Source: a virus (lineage: Duplodnaviria; Heunggongvirae; Uroviricota; Caudoviricetes). From it: 13,069 nt of DNA. The translations under genes were made by a program, and so were the position numbers. The stretch is from IMG/VR virus record IMGVR_UViG_2778261166_000004, one strand, 5' to 3'. The notes under the pieces were generated by a model. The model did no database searches. It was not told where the DNA came from and saw only the letters and a list, made by a program, of their open reading frames with translations. Below, piece by piece: positions 3,079 through 12,081 of this stretch. Numbering within the stretch: the stretch's first letter is position 1; each line of letters starts with the position of its first letter.

Positions 3079-3185
3079 CGCCCGCTTTGCGGGGCGGTTT
3101 TAATGCAGTTGCACTGACACGCTCAGGCCGTGCCGGGAATGGCGCGGTATACAGAAAATGAGGCAGGAAAACGCATGCAAAGCCA

Positions 3186-3216
3186 TGCACCTTATCGATG
3201 CATGGCTTTTTTCAGT
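3186..3216 (-). terminator. Hairpin downstream of psu (gccatgca...tgcatggc) with flanking T/A runs; possible late-operon terminator
   Basis: 8-bp inverted repeat around a 9-nt loop, 30-60 nt beyond the psu stop. It is followed by a T-run on the plus strand and by TTTGCATGCGTTTT on the minus strand. Orientation is ambiguous. Confidence 0.4.
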
Positions 3217-3242
3217 AAAAACAGGCGGATTTTCGGGGAATT

Positions 3243-3815
3243 TTACACAGACTGACGTGATGCCAGTTGCGCACTTTTACGCGAAAAAATCATGTTCTGC
3301 GCAGGAGTGAATTTTTCACGGCTGTCATCCACCGAAGCCGCGTCAGGCCTGAATCCGATGGTCGTTAAAATGTCGCTATCCTGTGCGGAATAATTAATTT
3401 TTTCCCCCTTCGCAAGCCAGGACAGAAGGGCTTCACGCAGGGCATCTGTGGCACGCTGTATGGCACAGTTTCGGGCAATGGCCGTCAGCTCACTGTAGCC
3501 CATCAGCTCCGGTGCCAGTGCCGCCGCCAGTGCTGTGCCGTGCTGCTGCATAAAATCATTCAGCCGGTCGCGGATGCTGATGTGCTGAACGGCTTCATGC
3601 GAACGAATATAACGACCGGCGGCCTGATTCACCTGCCATTTTCTGACTTCGATAATATTGCGTAATTCGTCCAGGCGACTGACGTTTCTGCCTTCTCCTG
3701 ACAGAAGCCGCAGGTATTCCTGTTCGGCCGCTGCCAGCTCATTTTTGCGTTGCAGCCATGCTGCTTTGTTATTCTGACAGGTGTCAAAGGCCTGCTGTAA
3801 GGCTGTGCTTTCCAT
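3243..3815 (-). CDS. psu: Psu (polarity suppression / capsid decoration protein, Rho antagonist)
   Basis: 190-aa ORF, the length of P4 Psu, last in the sid-delta-psu order next to cos. The N-terminal sequence MESTALQQAFDTCQNNKAAW matches my recollection of P4 Psu. Not verified by alignment. Confidence 0.88.
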   Translation of the reverse strand: MESTALQQAFDTCQNNKAAWLQRKNELAAAEQEYLRLLSGEGRNVSRLDELRNIIEVRKWQVNQAAGRYIRSHEAVQHISIRDRLNDFMQQHGTALAAALAPELMGYSELTAIARNCAIQRATDALREALLSWLAKGEKINYSAQDSDILTTIGFRPDAASVDDSREKFTPAQNMIFSRKSAQLASRQSV

Positions 3816-3888
3816 CGTTATCTCTTTCTCATCATGCTGAAGAATAAAAATACGGTGTGCGGCGACGGCCGGTGTTAACCGGCAGCCC

Positions 3889-4389
3889 TCATTCCAGACG
3901 CAGCGAATATGATTGTGTTTTTAAGCGTACTGGCGGCAGTTCCTGTTTTTCATGCAGGCTTTCTGCCAGTTCGTCCGGCGTGACCGGGCGGACAATGAAA
4001 CGGTTGATGGTCTGAAGCGTTTTAAACACCAGACCACAGCCCGGATCCGTGCACACATAAAAACGCTCGGTGACTTCCTGAGACAGACGCCTCGATGTTC
4101 TTGACAGTGCAAGGCCTTTACATCTCCGACAACAATATCCGGTAACAAGCATTCTTTTCGGGCGTTTCATACTGCCGGAGGCTGACGTCAGTGAATCGCG
4201 GTATCTCTGTTTGCCTGAAATGTATTCCATTCCTGAATCTTTACTGTCAGAGAAAAAGCTTTCACTCGCTTCAAATGTCGCAGAGCAATAAATATTCCGG
4301 CACTGTGCAATCATTATCTTGGTGCCATCGTCCATGAAATGTGCGCGGCGGGTGTGAGCAACATGTCCACACGACGGGCAGTAAATCAT
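3889..4389 (-). CDS. delta: Delta (Ogr-family zinc-finger late transcription activator, duplicated Ogr-like domains)
   Basis: 166-aa ORF, the length of P4 Delta. It has two Ogr-like Cys4 units (CPSCGHVAH...CRNIYCSATF and CCRRCKG...CTDPGCGLVF). Its ATG overlaps the sid stop (ATGA), and it lies between sid and psu. Confidence 0.9.
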   Translation of the reverse strand: MIYCPSCGHVAHTRRAHFMDDGTKIMIAQCRNIYCSATFEASESFFSDSKDSGMEYISGKQRYRDSLTSASGSMKRPKRMLVTGYCCRRCKGLALSRTSRRLSQEVTERFYVCTDPGCGLVFKTLQTINRFIVRPVTPDELAESLHEKQELPPVRLKTQSYSLRLE

Positions 4390-5120
4390 GACAGCAGTCC
4401 TCTGGCCTTAAGCTCTGCACCCTGCTGGTCTATTTTGTCCTGCCACACCTTGCGCTGTGCCGGTGTGCCTGCCACCTCATAATCCATGTGCGGGAGTGTT
4501 GCCGCTGACAGTCCGGTCAGCCGGAGAACCGGCTCGCCGGTGAGGCTGATTTGCATCTGTTTAATTTTCTGTTCCAGCGATGATTTCACCTGCTGCATGA
4601 CAGCCTTATCGGGTGCGACGTAGCCCTGATGGCCGGTGGTGTTGGCGAGCGGATTTTCCTGTACCAGGATACTCAGATGCATTGCCCGGACAAGCGCCTC
4701 ACAGGTTTCATTCAGGGCGTGTTCCAGCTCATGCTCTGCATACAGACTCAGAAGGTGATGATGTGCCTTCCGGTAGGCGGTGGCCGTGCTGTCACACGCC
4801 CCTTTCAGGCGTTCACGTTCGAAATTCAGCACCACGGCCAGATTGTCATATTCCTGTACCAGCTCCCGGCGTGCCACGCGCTCAATGTGGCGCTGTTTCA
4901 GCTCGTCGCTCAGGACACCACCGGCTGCACGAAAGGCCGTGCGCCAGTCGTCAGCGTCGTTTCCGTCGGCCTGCGCCAGCGCATTTTTTTCCTGCTCTGC
5001 CCGTTCAATGGCCGTGACGGTCTCATCCATCAGGCGGGCGTTCTCAAGATGGGCGGCTCTGGCCTTTTCCAGTTGTGCCAGCGCGGGTTGCAGATATTCA
5101 GGGATGGTGTTGTCAGACAT
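4386..5120 (-). CDS. sid: Sid (external scaffold / capsid size determination protein)
   Basis: The ORF track gives 250 aa from a GTG at 5138. The ATG at 5120 has a strong RBS (GAGGAG, 7-nt spacer) and gives 244 aa, the P4 Sid length, starting MSDNTIPEY. It is the first gene of the late operon. Confidence 0.88.
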   Translation of the reverse strand: MSDNTIPEYLQPALAQLEKARAAHLENARLMDETVTAIERAEQEKNALAQADGNDADDWRTAFRAAGGVLSDELKQRHIERVARRELVQEYDNLAVVLNFERERLKGACDSTATAYRKAHHHLLSLYAEHELEHALNETCEALVRAMHLSILVQENPLANTTGHQGYVAPDKAVMQQVKSSLEQKIKQMQISLTGEPVLRLTGLSAATLPHMDYEVAGTPAQRKVWQDKIDQQGAELKARGLLS

Positions 5121-5146
5121 TTTCCGGCTCCTCGTCACTTCAGGTT

Positions 5147-5210
5147 AAGAAAATTGTGACGTACACCGGACAACAACACGACGCATTGCAGATGTGCCAG
5201 CCCTGACACA
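5147..5210 (-). promoter_or_regulatory. Psid-type late promoter with two TGT-N12-ACA Delta/Ogr binding dyads
   Basis: Seen: TGT-N12-ACA at 5193-5210 and again at 5155-5172. If transcription starts near 5147 (27-nt leader to sid), these are centred near -55 and -18. That matches the recalled arrangement of P4 late promoters, which have a second Delta site near -18. Confidence 0.55.
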
Positions 5211-5289
5211 GGAGACTCATCCTCAGACCGGCAAGCCAGGAAAAGGTCGCAGGAAAAACCGGCTTACTGTTTGTTTTTTTATATTTTAC

Positions 5290-5393
5290 TGTTCACCTCT
5301 GTTCACCATAAGAAAAAAGATAAGTAATACAGTAATTTAAAGGGTGAACAATCGCAGTAATGACTGTTCACCGTCTGTTCACCACTGTTCACC
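5290..5393. repeat. ori-like cluster of type I iterons (octamer TGTTCACC, six copies in both orientations)
   Basis: Seen: TGTTCACC at ~5290, 5300, 5365, 5376, 5386 and inverted GGTGAACA at ~5343, followed by an AT-rich tract (5400-5480). It lies between the divergent late promoters, ~4.8 kb from the second iteron cluster, consistent with P4 ori versus crr. Confidence 0.7.
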
Positions 5394-5551
5394 CGTTCAT
5401 GGACTTTTTGTGCTGTTTATTACTTTTTATTTTTATTAATTAACTGAAATAAATAAGAAAAAACAATTTGTATTTCACTATAATTTTTTCCAGCTCCTTC
5501 CAGAGCGTTTTAAAGCTATCTGGCGCTGATGTACAAAAAATACACAGTCAT

Positions 5552-5620
5552 TGTAAGGCTGCCGGAACAAATCCCCCCTGTTGCGTCTGCTGAAAATATT
5601 CACAAAATAAAGCGCTACCC
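5552..5620 (+). promoter_or_regulatory. PLL-type late leftward-operon promoter (single TGT-N12-ACA Delta dyad) upstream of vis
   Basis: TGT-N12-ACA seen at about 5551-5569 (tgtaaggctgccggaaca). This predicts a start near 5614, ~58 nt before the vis ATG and ~400 nt upstream of the sigma70-like promoter at 5974-6003, matching the recalled PLL-PLE spacing in P4. The -10 is weak, as expected for an activator-dependent promoter. Confidence 0.45.
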
Positions 5621-5671
5621 GAAGCCGGACGGACTTATCCGGTGCTGTATGGACATTAACGAGGTAGCCCG

Positions 5672-5938
5672 ATGCAAGCTGTTTTTTCTTCCCCGTCTCC
5701 CGCCCCTGTGACGCCACTGATGCCGCTGCCGGACATCACGCAGGAGCGTTTTTTACGTCTGCCGGAAGTGATGCACCTGTGCGGCCTGTCACGCTCGACC
5801 ATCTACGAACTCATCCGTAAGGGGGAATTTCCGCCGCAGGTGAGTCTTGGCGGTAAAAATGTGGCCTGGCTGCACTCTGAAGTCACCGCATGGATGGCCG
5901 GACGCATTGCCGGACGCAAACGGGGGTACGACGCATGA
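5672..5938 (+). CDS. vis: Vis (AlpA-family helix-turn-helix regulator / excision directionality factor)
   Basis: 88-aa ORF with the AlpA-type HTH signature ([27 protein letters not shown]). It is the first gene after the PLL-like promoter. GAGG lies ~7 nt upstream of the ATG. Confidence 0.8.
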
Positions 5939-5973
5939 TGATGCCCGCTCTGCAAAAACTCCCTTTTTCTGGC

Positions 5974-6003
5974 TTGCCTTTTTCCGGCATTTGCGGATAT
6001 AGT
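5974..6003 (+). promoter_or_regulatory. Sigma70-like promoter (PLE-like early promoter): TTGCCT, 18-nt spacer, TATAGT
   Basis: Seen directly at 5974-5979 and 5998-6003. It lies just downstream of vis and ~400 nt downstream of the PLL-like site. Confidence 0.5.
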
Positions 6004-6066
6004 TTTTCCGCTGCCGCAAAATCGGCAGCCGGGCGTGAGAACCCGAGCAATTCACAGGCGACATAT

Positions 6067-6088
6067 GACGCGCCACGCGTCTTTTTTT
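6067..6088 (+). terminator. Intrinsic terminator (gacgcg-cca-cgcgtc followed by T7) ~60-80 nt downstream of the early promoter
   Basis: Seen: 6-bp GC-rich stem, 3-nt loop, then seven T residues. A second hairpin (gctgccg / cggcagc, 6010-6029) lies between promoter and terminator. The geometry suggests a short attenuated transcript or small RNA, as in the P4 immunity region. Confidence 0.6.
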
Positions 6089-6336
6089 GTGTCGCAATCA
6101 ATGCCACAGAGCGCCAGATTATGGTGTGGTGTGTGGTCAGTCGTGCAGATGGCATTCCGTGCATCCTGCCTGCGTCCGCTCATTATGCCGCAGAGTCAAT
6201 GGTAGCTCAGGCGGGGCAGCCTCCGGGCTGGCCGGTATCCTGTGAAGCCGGTATTCTCACCCCCGTCTGGGCTATCGCCATCGAGCGTGAGAACTCCGGC
6301 GATAGCGTTATTTGCTATTCACAGGAGGCTGCCATC

Positions 6337-6534
6337 ATGGCTACAACCCTTACCCCCTCACACCCTGAATTTGTCTTTGTGTTTGCGGCTGTCCGTCGCG
6401 CAGACCGTCATCCCCGTATCTGTATGCTTCGCACCGTCGCCGGTGATGAACGCAGTGCCCGCCGTTCCCTTGTCCGTGACTATGTGCTCTCCCTTGCTGC
6501 CCGTCTGCCGGTGGTGGAGGTGTCCCGTGCGTAA
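6337..6534 (+). CDS. Hypothetical small protein (65 aa) nested in a longer open frame (5935/6121/6199..6534)
   Basis: ATG at 6337 is preceded by AGGAGG with an 8-nt spacer. The product ([65 protein letters not shown]) looks protein-like. The same frame stays open upstream to 5890/5935 (199 aa from the ATG at 5935), but that part spans the promoter and terminator above and is Cys/Trp/Pro-rich. The true start is uncertain. Confidence 0.45.
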
Positions 6535-6814
6535 TAAAAAAGCCCCTCAGACCGTCTCAGCGCGTCATGACGCCCGTGAACACCTCAGCATTGAGGCTTA
6601 CCATAAGCTCAACCGCGCCAGCGCCGTATCCCAGTTTGTTGGGGGTGATTTGATTCACCGTGAACTCTCCGGCCTGCATCAGCTCTACATTCCGCATATT
6701 TTCAGCTACCTGAATGAAGATATTGATTTTGTGCTGAATGAACTGAAAGCCAAAGGCCTGTGCCGCGATTTTCTCGCCCAGCAGAAAGACCGGGGAGACA
6801 GGACGCATGTTTGA
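6527..6814 (+). CDS. epsilon: Epsilon (helper-prophage derepression protein)
   Basis: A GTG start at 6527 with GGAGG 9 nt upstream gives exactly 95 aa, the P4 Epsilon length. The in-frame upstream extension to 6242 is low-complexity Pro/Ser/Leu-rich and looks non-coding. The stop overlaps the start of orf151. Confidence 0.75.
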
Positions 6815-7262
6815 TTTTCCCCAGCCCGGTGAGATTTACCGTTCTGCCGGTTTTCCCGATGTGGCCGTGGTCGGCATTCTGGAAGACGGTATTCCGTGGG
6901 AAATGCCGTACCGCTGCCCGGACATTGTCTGGAACCCGTACCGCCGTAAATTCAGTATCCTTGTGCGTATCCTCGCTGACGGGCGCACCACAGACATCCC
7001 GCTGGGGCGTTTTCTGCGGGAATTTACCTGTGACCGTCCTGACCTGTTTAAACGCAGCCCCGTAAACCGGCATGCGGTACTGAAAGAAATGGCCGGAGAC
7101 CCGGAATTACAGAAATGGCGGGAGAAATATCTGGATATTTACCCGCAGGACCCTGTTCCGGTCAGCCGGGCGGCACCGGTGGCGCGGGAATGGCGGGAAA
7201 TCCCCCGCACGGAGCCTGACCCGGAAATCACACCGGATAACAGTTACCGCAATTATCTGTAA
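6807..7262 (+). CDS. P4 orf151-like protein (function unknown)
   Basis: 151-aa ORF in the conserved position between epsilon and alpha. Its start overlaps the epsilon stop (ATGTTTGA). Confidence 0.75.
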   Translation: MFDFPQPGEIYRSAGFPDVAVVGILEDGIPWEMPYRCPDIVWNPYRRKFSILVRILADGRTTDIPLGRFLREFTCDRPDLFKRSPVNRHAVLKEMAGDPELQKWREKYLDIYPQDPVPVSRAAPVAREWREIPRTEPDPEITPDNSYRNYL

Positions 7263-7397
7263 TTAAAAAACGACACCCGAAAAATTAAATGTGCGTATTC
7301 GCGCAGGGATACGCACGTCTTCAGGAGACGCAGATATGCCTTATCAGTTAATGCAACCGGCACGGAATGCAGTCATCTGTCACAGGGAGGAAAACAA

Positions 7398-7718
7398 ATG
7401 AAAACACCCTTACCGCCCGTCTTACGCGCAGCCCTTTACCGTCGCGCTGTCGCCTGTGCCTGGCTGACCGTGTGCGAACGTCAGCACCGCTACCCGCATC
7501 TCACCCTTGAATCACTGGAGGCGGCCATCGCCGCTGAGCTGGAAGGCTTTTATCTGCGCCAGCACGGTGAGGAAAAAGGGCGCCAGATAGCCTGTGCCCT
7601 GCTGGAAGATTTAATGGAATCCGGCCCCCTGAAGGCCGCGCCGTCGCTGTCCTTTCTCGGGCTGGTTGTGATGGATGAACTCTGTGCCCGTCACATAAAA
7701 GCGCCGGTACTGCACTGA
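7398..7718 (+). CDS. P4 orf106-like protein (function unknown)
   Basis: 106-aa ORF immediately upstream of alpha, with GGAGG 8 nt before the ATG. Confidence 0.75.
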
Positions 7719-7732
7719 AGGAGAACAACACC

Positions 7733-10066
7733 ATGAAAATGAACGTAACCGCCACCGTCAGCCATGCGCTCGGCCACTGGCCGCGTATTCTCCCGGCGCT
7801 GGGGATTCAGGTGCTGAAAAACCGTCATCAGCCCTGTCCGGTCTGTGGCGGGAGTGACCGCTTCCGTTTTGATGACAGGGAGGGGCGCGGCACCTGGTAC
7901 TGCAATCAGTGTGGTGCCGGTGACGGCCTGAAACTGGTTGAAAAGGTGTTTGGTGTTTCCCCGTCCGACGCGGCCACAAAGGTGGCTGCCGTGACCGGCA
8001 GCCTGCCCCCGACTGACCCGGCAGTGACGGCTGCCGCCGGTGCTGAAACAGACGCTGCCCGGAAGAACGCCGCCGCACTGGCACAAACCCTGATGGCGAA
8101 AACCCGTCCCGGAACCGGTAACGCCTACCTGACCCGCAAGGGCTTTCCCGGCCGGGAATGCCGGATGCTGACCGGCACACACAGAGCCGGTGGCGTGAGC
8201 TGGCGTGCCGGTGACCTTGTGGTGCCACTGTATGACGACAGCGGCGAACTGGTTAACCTTCAGTTAATCAGTGCTGACGGCCGTAAGCGCACCCTGAAAG
8301 GCGGGCAGGTCAGGGGCACCTGTCACATCCTTGAAGGACAGAATCAGGCCGGAAAACGTCTGTGGATAGCGGAGGGATACGCGACCGCACTTACCGTGCA
8401 TCACCTGACCGGTGAAACGGTGATGGTGGCGCTTTCTTCCGTGAACCTCCTTTCTCTGGCCAGCCTTGCCCGACAGAAGTATCCGGCCTGTCAGATTGTC
8501 CTTGCCGCAGACCGTGACCTCAGCGGTGACGGCCAGACAAAAGCCGCCGCAGCCGCAGATGCGTGTGAGGGCGTTGTTGCCCTGCCGCCGGTCTTCGGTG
8601 ACTGGAATGATGCCTTCACGCAGTACGGCGGGGAGGCCACCCGTAAGGCCATTTACGATGCCATCCGGCCACCGGCTGAAAGCCCGTTCGACACCATGAG
8701 CGAAGCAGAGTTTTCCGCCATGAGTACCAGCGAAAAGGCCATGCGTATCTATGAGCATTACGGCGAGGCGCTCGCGGTCGATGCCAACGGCCAGCTTCTG
8801 TCCCGCTATGAAAATGGTGTCTGGAAGGTACTGCCACCACAGGACTTTGCCCGGGATGTGGCCGGGCTGTTTCAGCGTCTGCGCGCGCCGTTCTCCTCCG
8901 GGAAAGTGGCCTCCGTGGTGGACACCCTGAAGCTGATTATTCCGCAGCAGGAAGCCCCCTCCCGCCGCCTGATTGGCTTTCGTAACGGCGTGCTCGACAC
9001 GCAGAACGGCACGTTCCACCCGCACAGTCCGTCACACTGGATGCGTACCCTGTGCGATGTGGATTTCACCCCGCCGGTGGACGGTGAAACGCTGGAGACC
9101 CACGCCCCCGCGTTCTGGCGCTGGCTTGACCGTGCCGCCGGTGGCCGTGCGGAAAAACGCGACGTGATTCTGGCTGCACTGTTTATGGTGCTGGCAAACC
9201 GCTACGACTGGCAGCTCTTTCTGGAGGTGACCGGTCCCGGCGGCAGCGGCAAAAGTATCATGGCCGAAATAGCCACCCTGCTGGCCGGGGAGGATAACGC
9301 CACGTCGGCCACCATTGAGACGCTGGAATCCCCGCGTGAACGTGCCGCGTTAACTGGCTTCTCACTGATACGCCTGCCGGACCAGGAAAAATGGAGCGGC
9401 GACGGAGCCGGACTCAAGGCCATCACCGGCGGCGATGCGGTGTCCGTTGACCCGAAATACCGGGATGCGTACTCCACGCACATCCCGGCGGTGATTCTGG
9501 CCGTGAACAATAACCCGATGCGCTTCACCGACCGCAGCGGCGGCGTGTCACGCCGGCGGGTGATTATTCACTTCCCGGAACAGATAGCCCCGCAGGAGCG
9601 CGACCCGCAGCTTAAGGACAAAATCACCCGCGAGCTGGCGGTCATCGTGCGTCACCTGATGCAGAAGTTCAGCGACCCGATGCTCGCCCGGTCACTGCTT
9701 CAGTCCCAGCAGAACTCAGACGAGGCGCTGAACATCAAACGGGATGCCGACCCGACGTTTGATTTTATCGGCTATCTGGAAACCCTGCCGCAGACCAGCG
9801 GCATGTATATGGGGAACGCCAGTATCATCCCGCGCAATTACCGTAAATACCTCTATCACGCCTATCTGGCCTACATGGAGGCAAACGGCTACCGGAATGT
9901 ACTCAGTCTGAAAATGTTCGGGCTGGGGCTGCCGGTGATGCTGAAGGAATACGGACTGAATTACGAGAAGCGCCATACCAAACAGGGGATACAGACCAAC
10001 CTGACGCTGAAAGAGGAAAGCTACGGCGACTGGCTGCCAAAATGTGAAGACCCTGCAACAACCTGA
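7733..10066 (+). CDS. alpha: Alpha: bifunctional primase-helicase and origin-binding replication protein
   Basis: 777-aa ORF, the P4 Alpha length. It has an N-terminal zinc-binding primase motif (CPVCGGSDRFRFDD...WYCNQCG), a TOPRIM-like acidic region (LAADRD), and a Walker A P-loop (GPGGSGKS) in the helicase domain. RBS AGGAG. Iteron clusters flank the operon. Confidence 0.95.
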   Translation: MKMNVTATVSHALGHWPRILPALGIQVLKNRHQPCPVCGGSDRFRFDDREGRGTWYCNQCGAGDGLKLVEKVFGVSPSDAATKVAAVTGSLPPTDPAVTAAAGAETDAARKNAAALAQTLMAKTRPGTGNAYLTRKGFPGRECRMLTGTHRAGGVSWRAGDLVVPLYDDSGELVNLQLISADGRKRTLKGGQVRGTCHILEGQNQAGKRLWIAEGYATALTVHHLTGETVMVALSSVNLLSLASLARQKYPACQIVLAADRDLSGDGQTKAAAAADACEGVVALPPVFGDWNDAFTQYGGEATRKAIYDAIRPPAESPFDTMSEAEFSAMSTSEKAMRIYEHYGEALAVDANGQLLSRYENGVWKVLPPQDFARDVAGLFQRLRAPFSSGKVASVVDTLKLIIPQQEAPSRRLIGFRNGVLDTQNGTFHPHSPSHWMRTLCDVDFTPPVDGETLETHAPAFWRWLDRAAGGRAEKRDVILAALFMVLANRYDWQLFLEVTGPGGSGKSIMAEIATLLAGEDNATSATIETLESPRERAALTGFSLIRLPDQEKWSGDGAGLKAITGGDAVSVDPKYRDAYSTHIPAVILAVNNNPMRFTDRSGGVSRRRVIIHFPEQIAPQERDPQLKDKITRELAVIVRHLMQKFSDPMLARSLLQSQQNSDEALNIKRDADPTFDFIGYLETLPQTSGMYMGNASIIPRNYRKYLYHAYLAYMEANGYRNVLSLKMFGLGLPVMLKEYGLNYEKRHTKQGIQTNLTLKEESYGDWLPKCEDPATT

Positions 10067-10081
10067 CCCTCATGACTCATC

Positions 10082-10107
10082 TGACCGGCATCTGCCGGTC
10101 TTTTTTT
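10082..10107 (+). terminator. Intrinsic terminator after alpha (tgaccggca-tc-tgccggtc followed by T7)
   Basis: Seen: GC-rich stem and T7 run beginning 16 nt after the alpha stop. Confidence 0.7.
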
Positions 10108-10125
10108 ATCCCTGAATTCCCCGAA

Positions 10126-10398
10126 GGTGAACAATCCACTGTTCACCCTTCACCGTATATTCACCTGTTATCACACTGAAATTAAAAGAGAAAAACGAAA
10201 GGTGAACAGTGTGAACAATCAAATCAAAAAAAACTTTTTTCTCCCTGTGTGATTTTCAGTACGGGGGATTAATCACCGGTATGAGTCACACCGGCAGAAT
10301 GCCGGAGGTGAAGAATCGAATGTTCACCCTTCACCCATTATTCACCACCTATCATACTGAAATAAAAGGAGAAAAAAGAAAGGTGAACAGTGTGAACA
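10126..10398. repeat. crr-like cis replication region: two ~77-bp direct repeats (about 10140-10216 and 10321-10398), each carrying TGTTCACC / GGTGAACA iterons
   Basis: Seen: the two copies align nearly base for base (tgttcacccttcacc...ttcacc...ctgaaat...gaaaggtgaacagtgtgaaca). An additional inverted iteron is at 10126-10133. The region is AT-rich and lies downstream of alpha. Confidence 0.7.
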
Positions 10399-10610
10399 GT
10401 TCTTTCGAAAAAAAAATTTTTATGTGGATAAAAGATGCACTGGTTTGGATCCGGGCTACGGATCCAAACTTACTGATTAAAAATTATTTAACTTTCCGAT
10501 TTATTGATGGGCTGAAAATAGATTGGTCAGAAAAACAGTGGGGGCACAAAAGGGGGCATATTTCATTGTTGTGTTTTATTATTTGTTTTTTATCATTAAC
10601 TTATTTTAAT

Positions 10611-10632
10611 GTTTGAGTCCGGCCTTCGCACC
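10611..10632 (+). other. Putative attR core: tRNA 3'-end-like sequence (gtttgagtccggccttcgcacc)
   Basis: It resembles the T-arm/acceptor end of a tRNA (GGTTCGAGTCCGGCCTTCGGCACCA-like, as recalled for tRNA-Leu leuX, the classical P4 attachment site). P4-family elements integrate into tRNA 3' ends and leave a partial copy at the far junction. Similarity is judged by eye. Confidence 0.4.
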
Positions 10633-11430: not shown

Positions 11431-12081
11431 ATGAATAAACTCCCTGATCATCTTCCGCGGCGGTATATCATCGAAGCTATCCATTTATGGGATGCGGGAG
11501 AAACTCATCAGTTCCAGCCTGCGCGGTTGTATGAGATTGAATATCATGGCCGACGTTACCCCTCGAAGGCGATTGCTGGCATCGCAGCGACATTGATGAC
11601 GGGGACGCAATTTACCCCTGCGGATTTCACCGGCGGAATAAAATCTAAATGTGTCAAGCTACTCATAGAGCAGGGATTTCATATTCATCTGGATAAAGCC
11701 GCTGCGGCTCCCATAGCCGACGTTCTGTTCCCGGATGAGTTGCCGTCGCAGGAGACATACCTTGAAGGTGCGGCGATAAAGGTGACAGTAAACCGCTATG
11801 AACGCGATAAAAAGGCCCGAGATAAAGCGGTCGAACATCATGGATGCCAGTGCAACGTATGCGGTGTTGATCTGGTGAAGATCTATGGTGATATCGCTGA
11901 AGGCTTTATCCATGTGCATCACCTGGTGCCGCTGTCAGCCATTAAAGAGGATTACCAGCTGGATCCAGTTAATGATTTGCTGCCTGTGTACCCTAATTGC
12001 CATGCGATGTTGCACCGACGCAAACCACCGTTTACGCCGGAGCAGTTAAAAGCGCTGATGGATGCGAATAAATCAAATTAA
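11431..12081 (+). CDS. HNH endonuclease family protein with an uncharacterised N-terminal domain (possible McrA-like modification-dependent restriction nuclease)
   Basis: 216-aa ORF. The C-terminus has an HNH-type motif set (CQCNVCG...HVHHLVPLS...N...YPNCHAMLH). The N-terminal ~100 aa is unrecognised. Confidence 0.7.
   Translation: MNKLPDHLPRRYIIEAIHLWDAGETHQFQPARLYEIEYHGRRYPSKAIAGIAATLMTGTQFTPADFTGGIKSKCVKLLIEQGFHIHLDKAAAAPIADVLFPDELPSQETYLEGAAIKVTVNRYERDKKARDKAVEHHGCQCNVCGVDLVKIYGDIAEGFIHVHHLVPLSAIKEDYQLDPVNDLLPVYPNCHAMLHRRKPPFTPEQLKALMDANKSN

Follow-up and report, generated by a model that had tools for sequence, protein, structure and literature searches.

Gene content of the element

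The stretch of DNA analysed here (the window; 13,069 nucleotides, IMG/VR record IMGVR_UViG_2778261166_000004) carries the control region between sid and vis within what, judged from its sequence, is an integrated P4-like satellite prophage. The gene order was taken from the open reading frame map together with domain matches. An integrase gene (positions 1-1260) is followed by two genes without known identity, psu (3243-3815), delta (3889-4389, minus strand), sid (4386-5120, minus strand; 244 amino acids, aligned to the P4 sid coding sequence), a 551 bp sid-vis spacer and vis (ORF88; 5672-5938, plus strand), beyond which lie ash/epsilon-type genes and the gene for the alpha primase-helicase (7733-10066), the protein cognate to the origin iterons. 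sid is the first gene of the late operon sid-delta-psu, and vis is the first gene 3' of the promoter PLL. Delta, the activator, is made of two Ogr/Delta zinc-finger domains fused together (two matches to Pfam PF04606, E = 6.9e-22) and Vis is an AlpA-type DNA-binding protein (Pfam PF05930, E = 7.3e-21); both are intact, with 163 of 166 residues (98%) identical to P4 Delta and 87 of 88 (99%) identical to P4 ORF88.

The element has the same genes as P4 (X51522 / NC_001609) in the same order, and its six iterons and three dyads all recur in P4 at the corresponding places. Positions 3079-10632 are 97.8% identical to P4 11624-4079, with 164 differences along the shared 7.5 kb. The identity is 94.9% for positions 4900-5900 (P4 X51522 8802-9803) and about 98% for the essential region outside one variable block, epsilon included.

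Homology to P4 begins at 3079 and stops at 10632, the attachment-site core. Between the integrase gene and 3079, two overlapping minus-strand open reading frames (1315-1899 and 1899-2825; 194 and 308 amino acids) occupy a stretch without P4 homology; it is between the integrase and the P4-homologous part that P4-like elements have their variable cargo position. Neither frame had a match in Pfam, PADLOC or NCBIfam, and the two could be an undescribed cargo or defence pair. Past 10632, an open reading frame at 11431-12081 (216 amino acids) gave weak matches to models of type IV methyl-directed restriction enzymes. On the 3' side of vis, Rfam models place C4 antisense RNA, the a1/b1 targets (c4-a1b1) and isrK at 5997-6282, which is an intact P4-type RNA immunity region; no RNA family from Rfam was found within 5147-5620.

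Dyads and core promoters in the sid-vis spacer

The original prediction placed three TGT-N12-ACA dyads around the origin, two upstream of sid and one upstream of vis. All three are perfect matches: TGTGACGTACACCGGACA at 5155-5172, TGTGCCAGCCCTGACACA at 5193-5210 and TGTAAGGCTGCCGGAACA at 5552-5569. The last had been put at about 5551-5569; the dyad is there, and its left end moves by one base to 5552. Over the whole window the motif was found six times against 2.86 expected, and at least six copies were reached in 14 of 200 shuffles; this count is unremarkable and carries no significance. The presence of three dyads inside the 551 bp spacer is rare by chance: it was reached by 23 of 20,000 dinucleotide-preserving shuffles of the spacer, and no other 551 bp piece of the window holds more.

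On the sid side, a -10-like hexamer, CACAAT, can be read from the sequence at 5153-5158 on the minus strand, and the start of the leftward promoter Psid would lie near 5146/5147, seven bases beyond it (5158-5153). On the vis side, the PLL core (5581-5608, plus strand) has a -35-like TTGCGT (5581-5586), a 16 bp spacer and a -10-like CAAAAT (5603-5608), beyond which the start would fall at 5615-5617. Both starts are derived from the -10-like hexamers and by analogy with P2, whose record (AF063097) annotates the starts and activator sites of four late promoters and served as the reference for geometry. Counted from these putative starts, the dyad at 5552-5569 is centred at about -55 to -57; the two sid-side dyads, which had been claimed at -18 and -55, have their centres at about -17 (or -18) and -55 from 5146/5147, the promoter-proximal one overlapping the -10 hexamer. 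On alignment by transcription start, with the annotated starts for P2, the interval from about -64 to -47 holds the PO, PF and PV sites as well as the window dyads 5193-5210 and 5552-5569. The -10-like hexamers also resemble those of P2 (CACAAT against TGCAAT in PV; CAAAATA against GAAAATA in PF). A consensus scan of 5050-5750 found no sigma-70 consensus promoter, as is expected of activator-dependent promoters. The region thus combines the marks of Ogr/Delta-dependent late promoters: dyads at -55, a recognisable -10 with a poor -35, a gene for the activator and orthology to P4.

The TGT-N12-ACA motif has been cited as the P2 late-promoter consensus (PMC3931495). The Ogr-dependent late promoters of P2 (PP/PO, PV and PF) likewise have a site about 55 bp upstream, a -35 that is weak and -10-like hexamers of similar sequence; PP and PO, like Psid and PLL, are divergent, and the left half-site TGTG(T/C) is common to P2 and the window. 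PP and PO share a single common site, whereas Psid and PLL have a site each, 359 bp apart with the origin between them. The P2 sites are moreover imperfect (TGT-N12-CCA, TGT-N11-ACA), unlike the perfect sites of the P4 lineage, and the perfect motif is therefore neither necessary nor sufficient as a definition.

In an alignment with the P4 Psid/PLL region, the Psid side is identical base for base from the start codon of sid through the iterons, both sid-side dyads included. On the PLL side, the half-sites of the dyad, the core promoter and the downstream leader are identical, and the dyad itself differs by three substitutions in its spacer (GGCTGCCG in the window and GACAGCCT in P4; the whole P4 dyad reads TGTAAGACAGCCTGAACA). 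This alignment had been named beforehand as a check, and the P4 late-promoter arrangement that was claimed is borne out by the orthology of Psid-ori-PLL, the P2-like geometry and the intact Delta. The P4 late promoters are said to have been mapped experimentally by Dale and coworkers in 1986 and by Deho and coworkers in 1988, and Julien and Calendar reportedly observed in 1995 footprints of Delta at -55, and at -18 in P4 Psid.

The origin between the promoters

Six type 1 iterons (TGTTCACC) lie at 5290-5393 (five on the plus strand, from 5290, 5300, 5365, 5376 and 5386, and one on the minus strand, at 5343-5350), between the dyads, as had been claimed for the iteron cluster and the divergent promoters. 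The annotated origin of P4, with six type 1 repeats, occupies exactly the corresponding place in the P4 records, between sid and ORF88/vis. An A+T-rich stretch (5400-5483), which falls inside the P4 rep_origin feature, adjoins the iterons, and further iterons are found at 10126-10382, where P4 crr aligns; with the alpha gene, these make up the set expected of a P4-type origin, namely an iteron cluster, an adjacent A+T-rich stretch, a second cluster (crr) and an alpha gene. The second iteron cluster as a whole (10126-10421) contains two 120 bp repeats and is about 82% identical to P4 crr.

A gap of 80 bp separates the iterons from the Psid site and one of 159 bp from the PLL site, and both promoters point away from the iterons, so that neither would transcribe through the origin. 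Between the Psid activator site and the iterons there is a block (CCGGCAAGCCAGGAAAAGGTCGCAGGAAAAACC, 5225-5262) with many invariant columns in the alignment of the different genera, where its conservation is similar to that of the iterons themselves; Vis, IHF or some other factor acting at the origin could bind there.

Conservation among P4-like elements

Homologues of Sid (55-100% identity) were used to retrieve two sets of loci, 18 from genomes and 80 from IMG/VR. The genome loci come from Mangrovibacter, Scandinavium, Klebsiella, Raoultella, Buttiauxella, Enterobacter, Citrobacter and others; 17 of the 18 have a Sid of 58-66% identity, and the remaining one (L005, 99%) belongs to the P4 lineage, as do most of the 80 IMG/VR loci. 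The Psid dyad at -55 is present in all 76 P4-lineage loci and is perfect in each of the 17 genome loci that include upstream sequence (16 distant relatives and L005), in which its centre is 76-85 bp from the start of sid. Its extended consensus in the distant relatives is TGTG(C/T)CA...TG(G/A/C)CACA. Among the distant relatives, the exact TGT-N12-ACA expression recovers this site only, and the other elements were found by alignment with relaxed spacing.

The PLL dyad occurs with eight spacer variants in the 76 P4-lineage loci, and its TGT and ACA are kept in 75 of them, the exception (L029) having TAT. The corresponding element of the distant relatives is imperfect (TGT-N11/N13-ACA, or GCA replacing ACA), resembles the P2 PV site and keeps the same distance from a block, TGTTGC with the -10 region, that is invariant across genera. 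On this pattern of conservation at Psid and PLL, the -55 sites behave as conserved functional elements.

The conservation on the PLL side extends downstream. In 68 distinct P4-lineage sequences, positions 5598-5657 are invariant and the longer stretch from the PLL core through the leader to the start codon of vis (5598-5671, plus strand) is nearly so; this stretch is also highly conserved across genera. The leader contains a short hairpin (CCGGA at 5625-5629 and TCCGG at 5638-5642). This core and leader may be an operator, given that Vis represses PLL, or an RNA element.

Function of the dyads

We consider the dyads at 5193-5210 and 5552-5569, with high confidence, to be the upstream activator sites of the divergent promoters Psid and PLL, at which Delta or Ogr is predicted to bind. 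Alternatively, they could have arisen by chance or be bound by a regulator of the host, for instance CRP (TGTGA-N6-TCACA). The dyad at 5193-5210 reads TGTGC-N6-TGACA, which matches the CRP core at eight of ten positions, and the motif is not enriched significantly over the whole window. The centre at -55 is, however, the activator position annotated for P2/P4 in AF063097, and the half-sites kept across genera are TGTG(C/T)CA and TG(G/A/C)CACA, which are not CRP half-sites. In addition, the element encodes its own Ogr/Delta activator and its Psid sequence is identical to that of P4. Position, conservation and orthology together make a host-factor or chance origin very unlikely indeed. The promoter-proximal dyad at 5155-5172 is less straightforward, as its perfect form could be a lineage-specific coincidence of the -10 hexamer and a conserved ACAACAAC run and not a functional activator site. 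The CACAAT hexamer supplies the TGT of this dyad on the other strand, and the right half lies within a run that is invariant for other reasons. Among the genome loci, only L005 has the perfect dyad, in common with the window and P4. In all ten of the distant relatives that could be aligned (among L006-L020) the element is TCT-N12-ACA; the Psid -10-like hexamer is CAGAAT in the distant relatives, with positions 2, 4, 5 and 6 kept, and the left half becomes TCT because position 3 of the overlapping hexamer differs (CACAAT to CAGAAT). The loss of the TGT half-site in all ten makes a role for the -18 site doubtful outside the P4 lineage. Against coincidence, the dyad is invariant in 76 of 76 P4-lineage loci, it is identical to that of P4, where a second Delta site in Psid at about -18 is said to have been found by Julien and Calendar in 1995, and three perfect dyads in 551 bp are rare by chance. 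We regard coincidence as the weaker of these possibilities, unlikely without being negligible: the -18 site probably binds Delta here, since its sequence is identical to that of P4, and its necessity is doubtful.

A further possibility is that replication initiation and late transcription interfere or are coupled at this compact shared site. The iterons and the A+T-rich stretch do lie between divergent promoters at the short distances given above, the order promoter-origin-promoter is kept across genera and, more speculatively, the twin-domain argument predicts that DNA between the promoters would become negatively supercoiled by divergent transcription and so perhaps unwind more easily. The iterons are, though, not crossed by transcription from either promoter, and there is no overlap of binding sites; the conserved order may be mere inheritance. 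Interference or coupling therefore seems to us improbable.

The reading that we prefer for the two -55 dyads is one of two separate activator-dependent promoters. The satellite Delta or an Ogr-type protein of the helper would bind the two dyads, each some 55 bp upstream of a start, and bring RNA polymerase to core promoters whose -10 is usable and whose -35 is poor. Leftward transcription from Psid would then cover sid-delta-psu and rightward transcription from PLL would enter vis and the replication operon, with 5155-5172 as a second, promoter-proximal Psid site specific to the P4 lineage. The iterons bound by the alpha protein would sit between the promoters, both of which fire away from them.

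A variable cassette upstream of PLL

The densest divergence from P4 in the 7.5 kb is found at 5479-5529, with 24 differences in 50 bp. Across the 68 distinct P4-lineage sequences, the sid-vis spacer is almost invariant outside a 48 bp cassette (5484-5531 in the window), directly upstream of the PLL activator site, which exists as three discrete alleles with sharp borders. Allele A, that of P4, reads CTTTAAGTGG / CTTTAAATGA / CTTTAAGTGG and is present in 441 of 5,426 complete E. coli genomes; allele B, that of the window, reads TTCCAGCTCC / TTCCAGAGCG / TTTTAAAGCT / ATCTGGCGCT (373 of 5,426); and allele C reads TTCCAGGTCC / TTCAGAACCC / TTTGAGACCC / TTCCAGTCCG (280 of 5,426), so that each is carried by about 5-8% of these genomes. 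In alleles A and C a unit of about 10 bp is repeated in tandem; allele B, also phased at about 10 bp, is less regular. The cassette does not co-vary with epsilon: this candidate was ruled out, the epsilon region being about 98% identical to P4.

In P4, allele A is annotated as 'ori type 2 repeats', and its other strand gives the Cox boxes of P2, TTAAA(G/C)NC(A/C). P2 Cox binds upstream of P4 PLL and activates it (PMC3936717). The window block has the same position as these Cox boxes, which serve helper-triggered derepression, and the same design of several short repeats phased at about 10 bp, and yet an unrelated allele stands in place of the 48 bp of P4. There are three phased boxes in P4, a single weak one in the window (at 5510, on the opposite strand and with one mismatch) and none in allele C. 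The several phased Cox boxes upstream of PLL that mark a PLL activated by P2 Cox are thus absent from the window.

We compared the alleles with the repressor-cox intergenic regions of P2-like phages. Counts of shared k-mers between the alleles and helper switch regions proved insensitive, as the positive control (the P4 allele against P2) failed; they were dropped in favour of local alignment with shuffles against the regions of eight Cox classes, in which the same control works. There allele A matches the P2 region over 34 nucleotides covering Pc (family-wise p < 0.0005). Allele B, with its TTCCAG... repeats, resembles not the region of P2 but those of Salmonella phage SW3 (19 of 22 nucleotides) and E. 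coli phage ESSI2_ev239 (family-wise p = 0.0015), two phages whose Cox proteins share 57% identity; allele C gave a weaker match to the same pair (p = 0.04). BLAST of the 48 bp cassette against phage records gave chance matches only, and against E. coli genomes it returned only full-length copies of the queried allele, with no weaker matches in helper prophages.

Distant elements (L008, L012, L014-L020 and L099-L102) also have, upstream of the PLL activator site, at least four short repeats phased at 10-11 bp, built from other motifs, mostly TTTGCCA. Against the eight helper switch regions, these TTTGCCA cassettes gave weak matches (p of about 0.003-0.05, uncorrected), too weak to assign a helper. 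The distant cassettes suggest a conserved architecture with a variable recognition sequence.

Since allele B resembles the switch region of SW3 and ESSI2_ev239 and not that of P2, the satellite may sense a different helper, and it is possible, if not yet probable, that the PLL of the window responds to another helper Cox than the PLL of P4. More generally, we put forward tentatively that the 48 bp cassette is an exchangeable helper sensor, in which each allele mimics the Cox operator found in a different P2-like helper class. The P4 allele would imitate the Pc operator of P2 and the window allele that of the SW3/ESSI2_ev239 class, and the cassette would decide which incoming or induced helper switches the satellite from lysogeny to late transcription.

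Implications

As regards the late promoters, the biology is already known: they are the P4 late promoters, re-identified in a near-identical relative of P4, and the main use of the result is the correct annotation of the prophage with Psid, PLL, the activator sites and the origin. The comparison across loci adds that, of the activator sites, the Psid -55 site alone is conserved in every case among P4-like satellites from several genera, and that the -18 site is peculiar to the P4 lineage. The cassette, a side observation, could matter more than the re-identified promoters. If it is a helper sensor, then helper range would be a property of a small, swappable piece of DNA, with the Delta sites, the origin and the proteins held constant, and the sequence of the cassette would be a simple marker for pairing each satellite with the helper phage that mobilises it.
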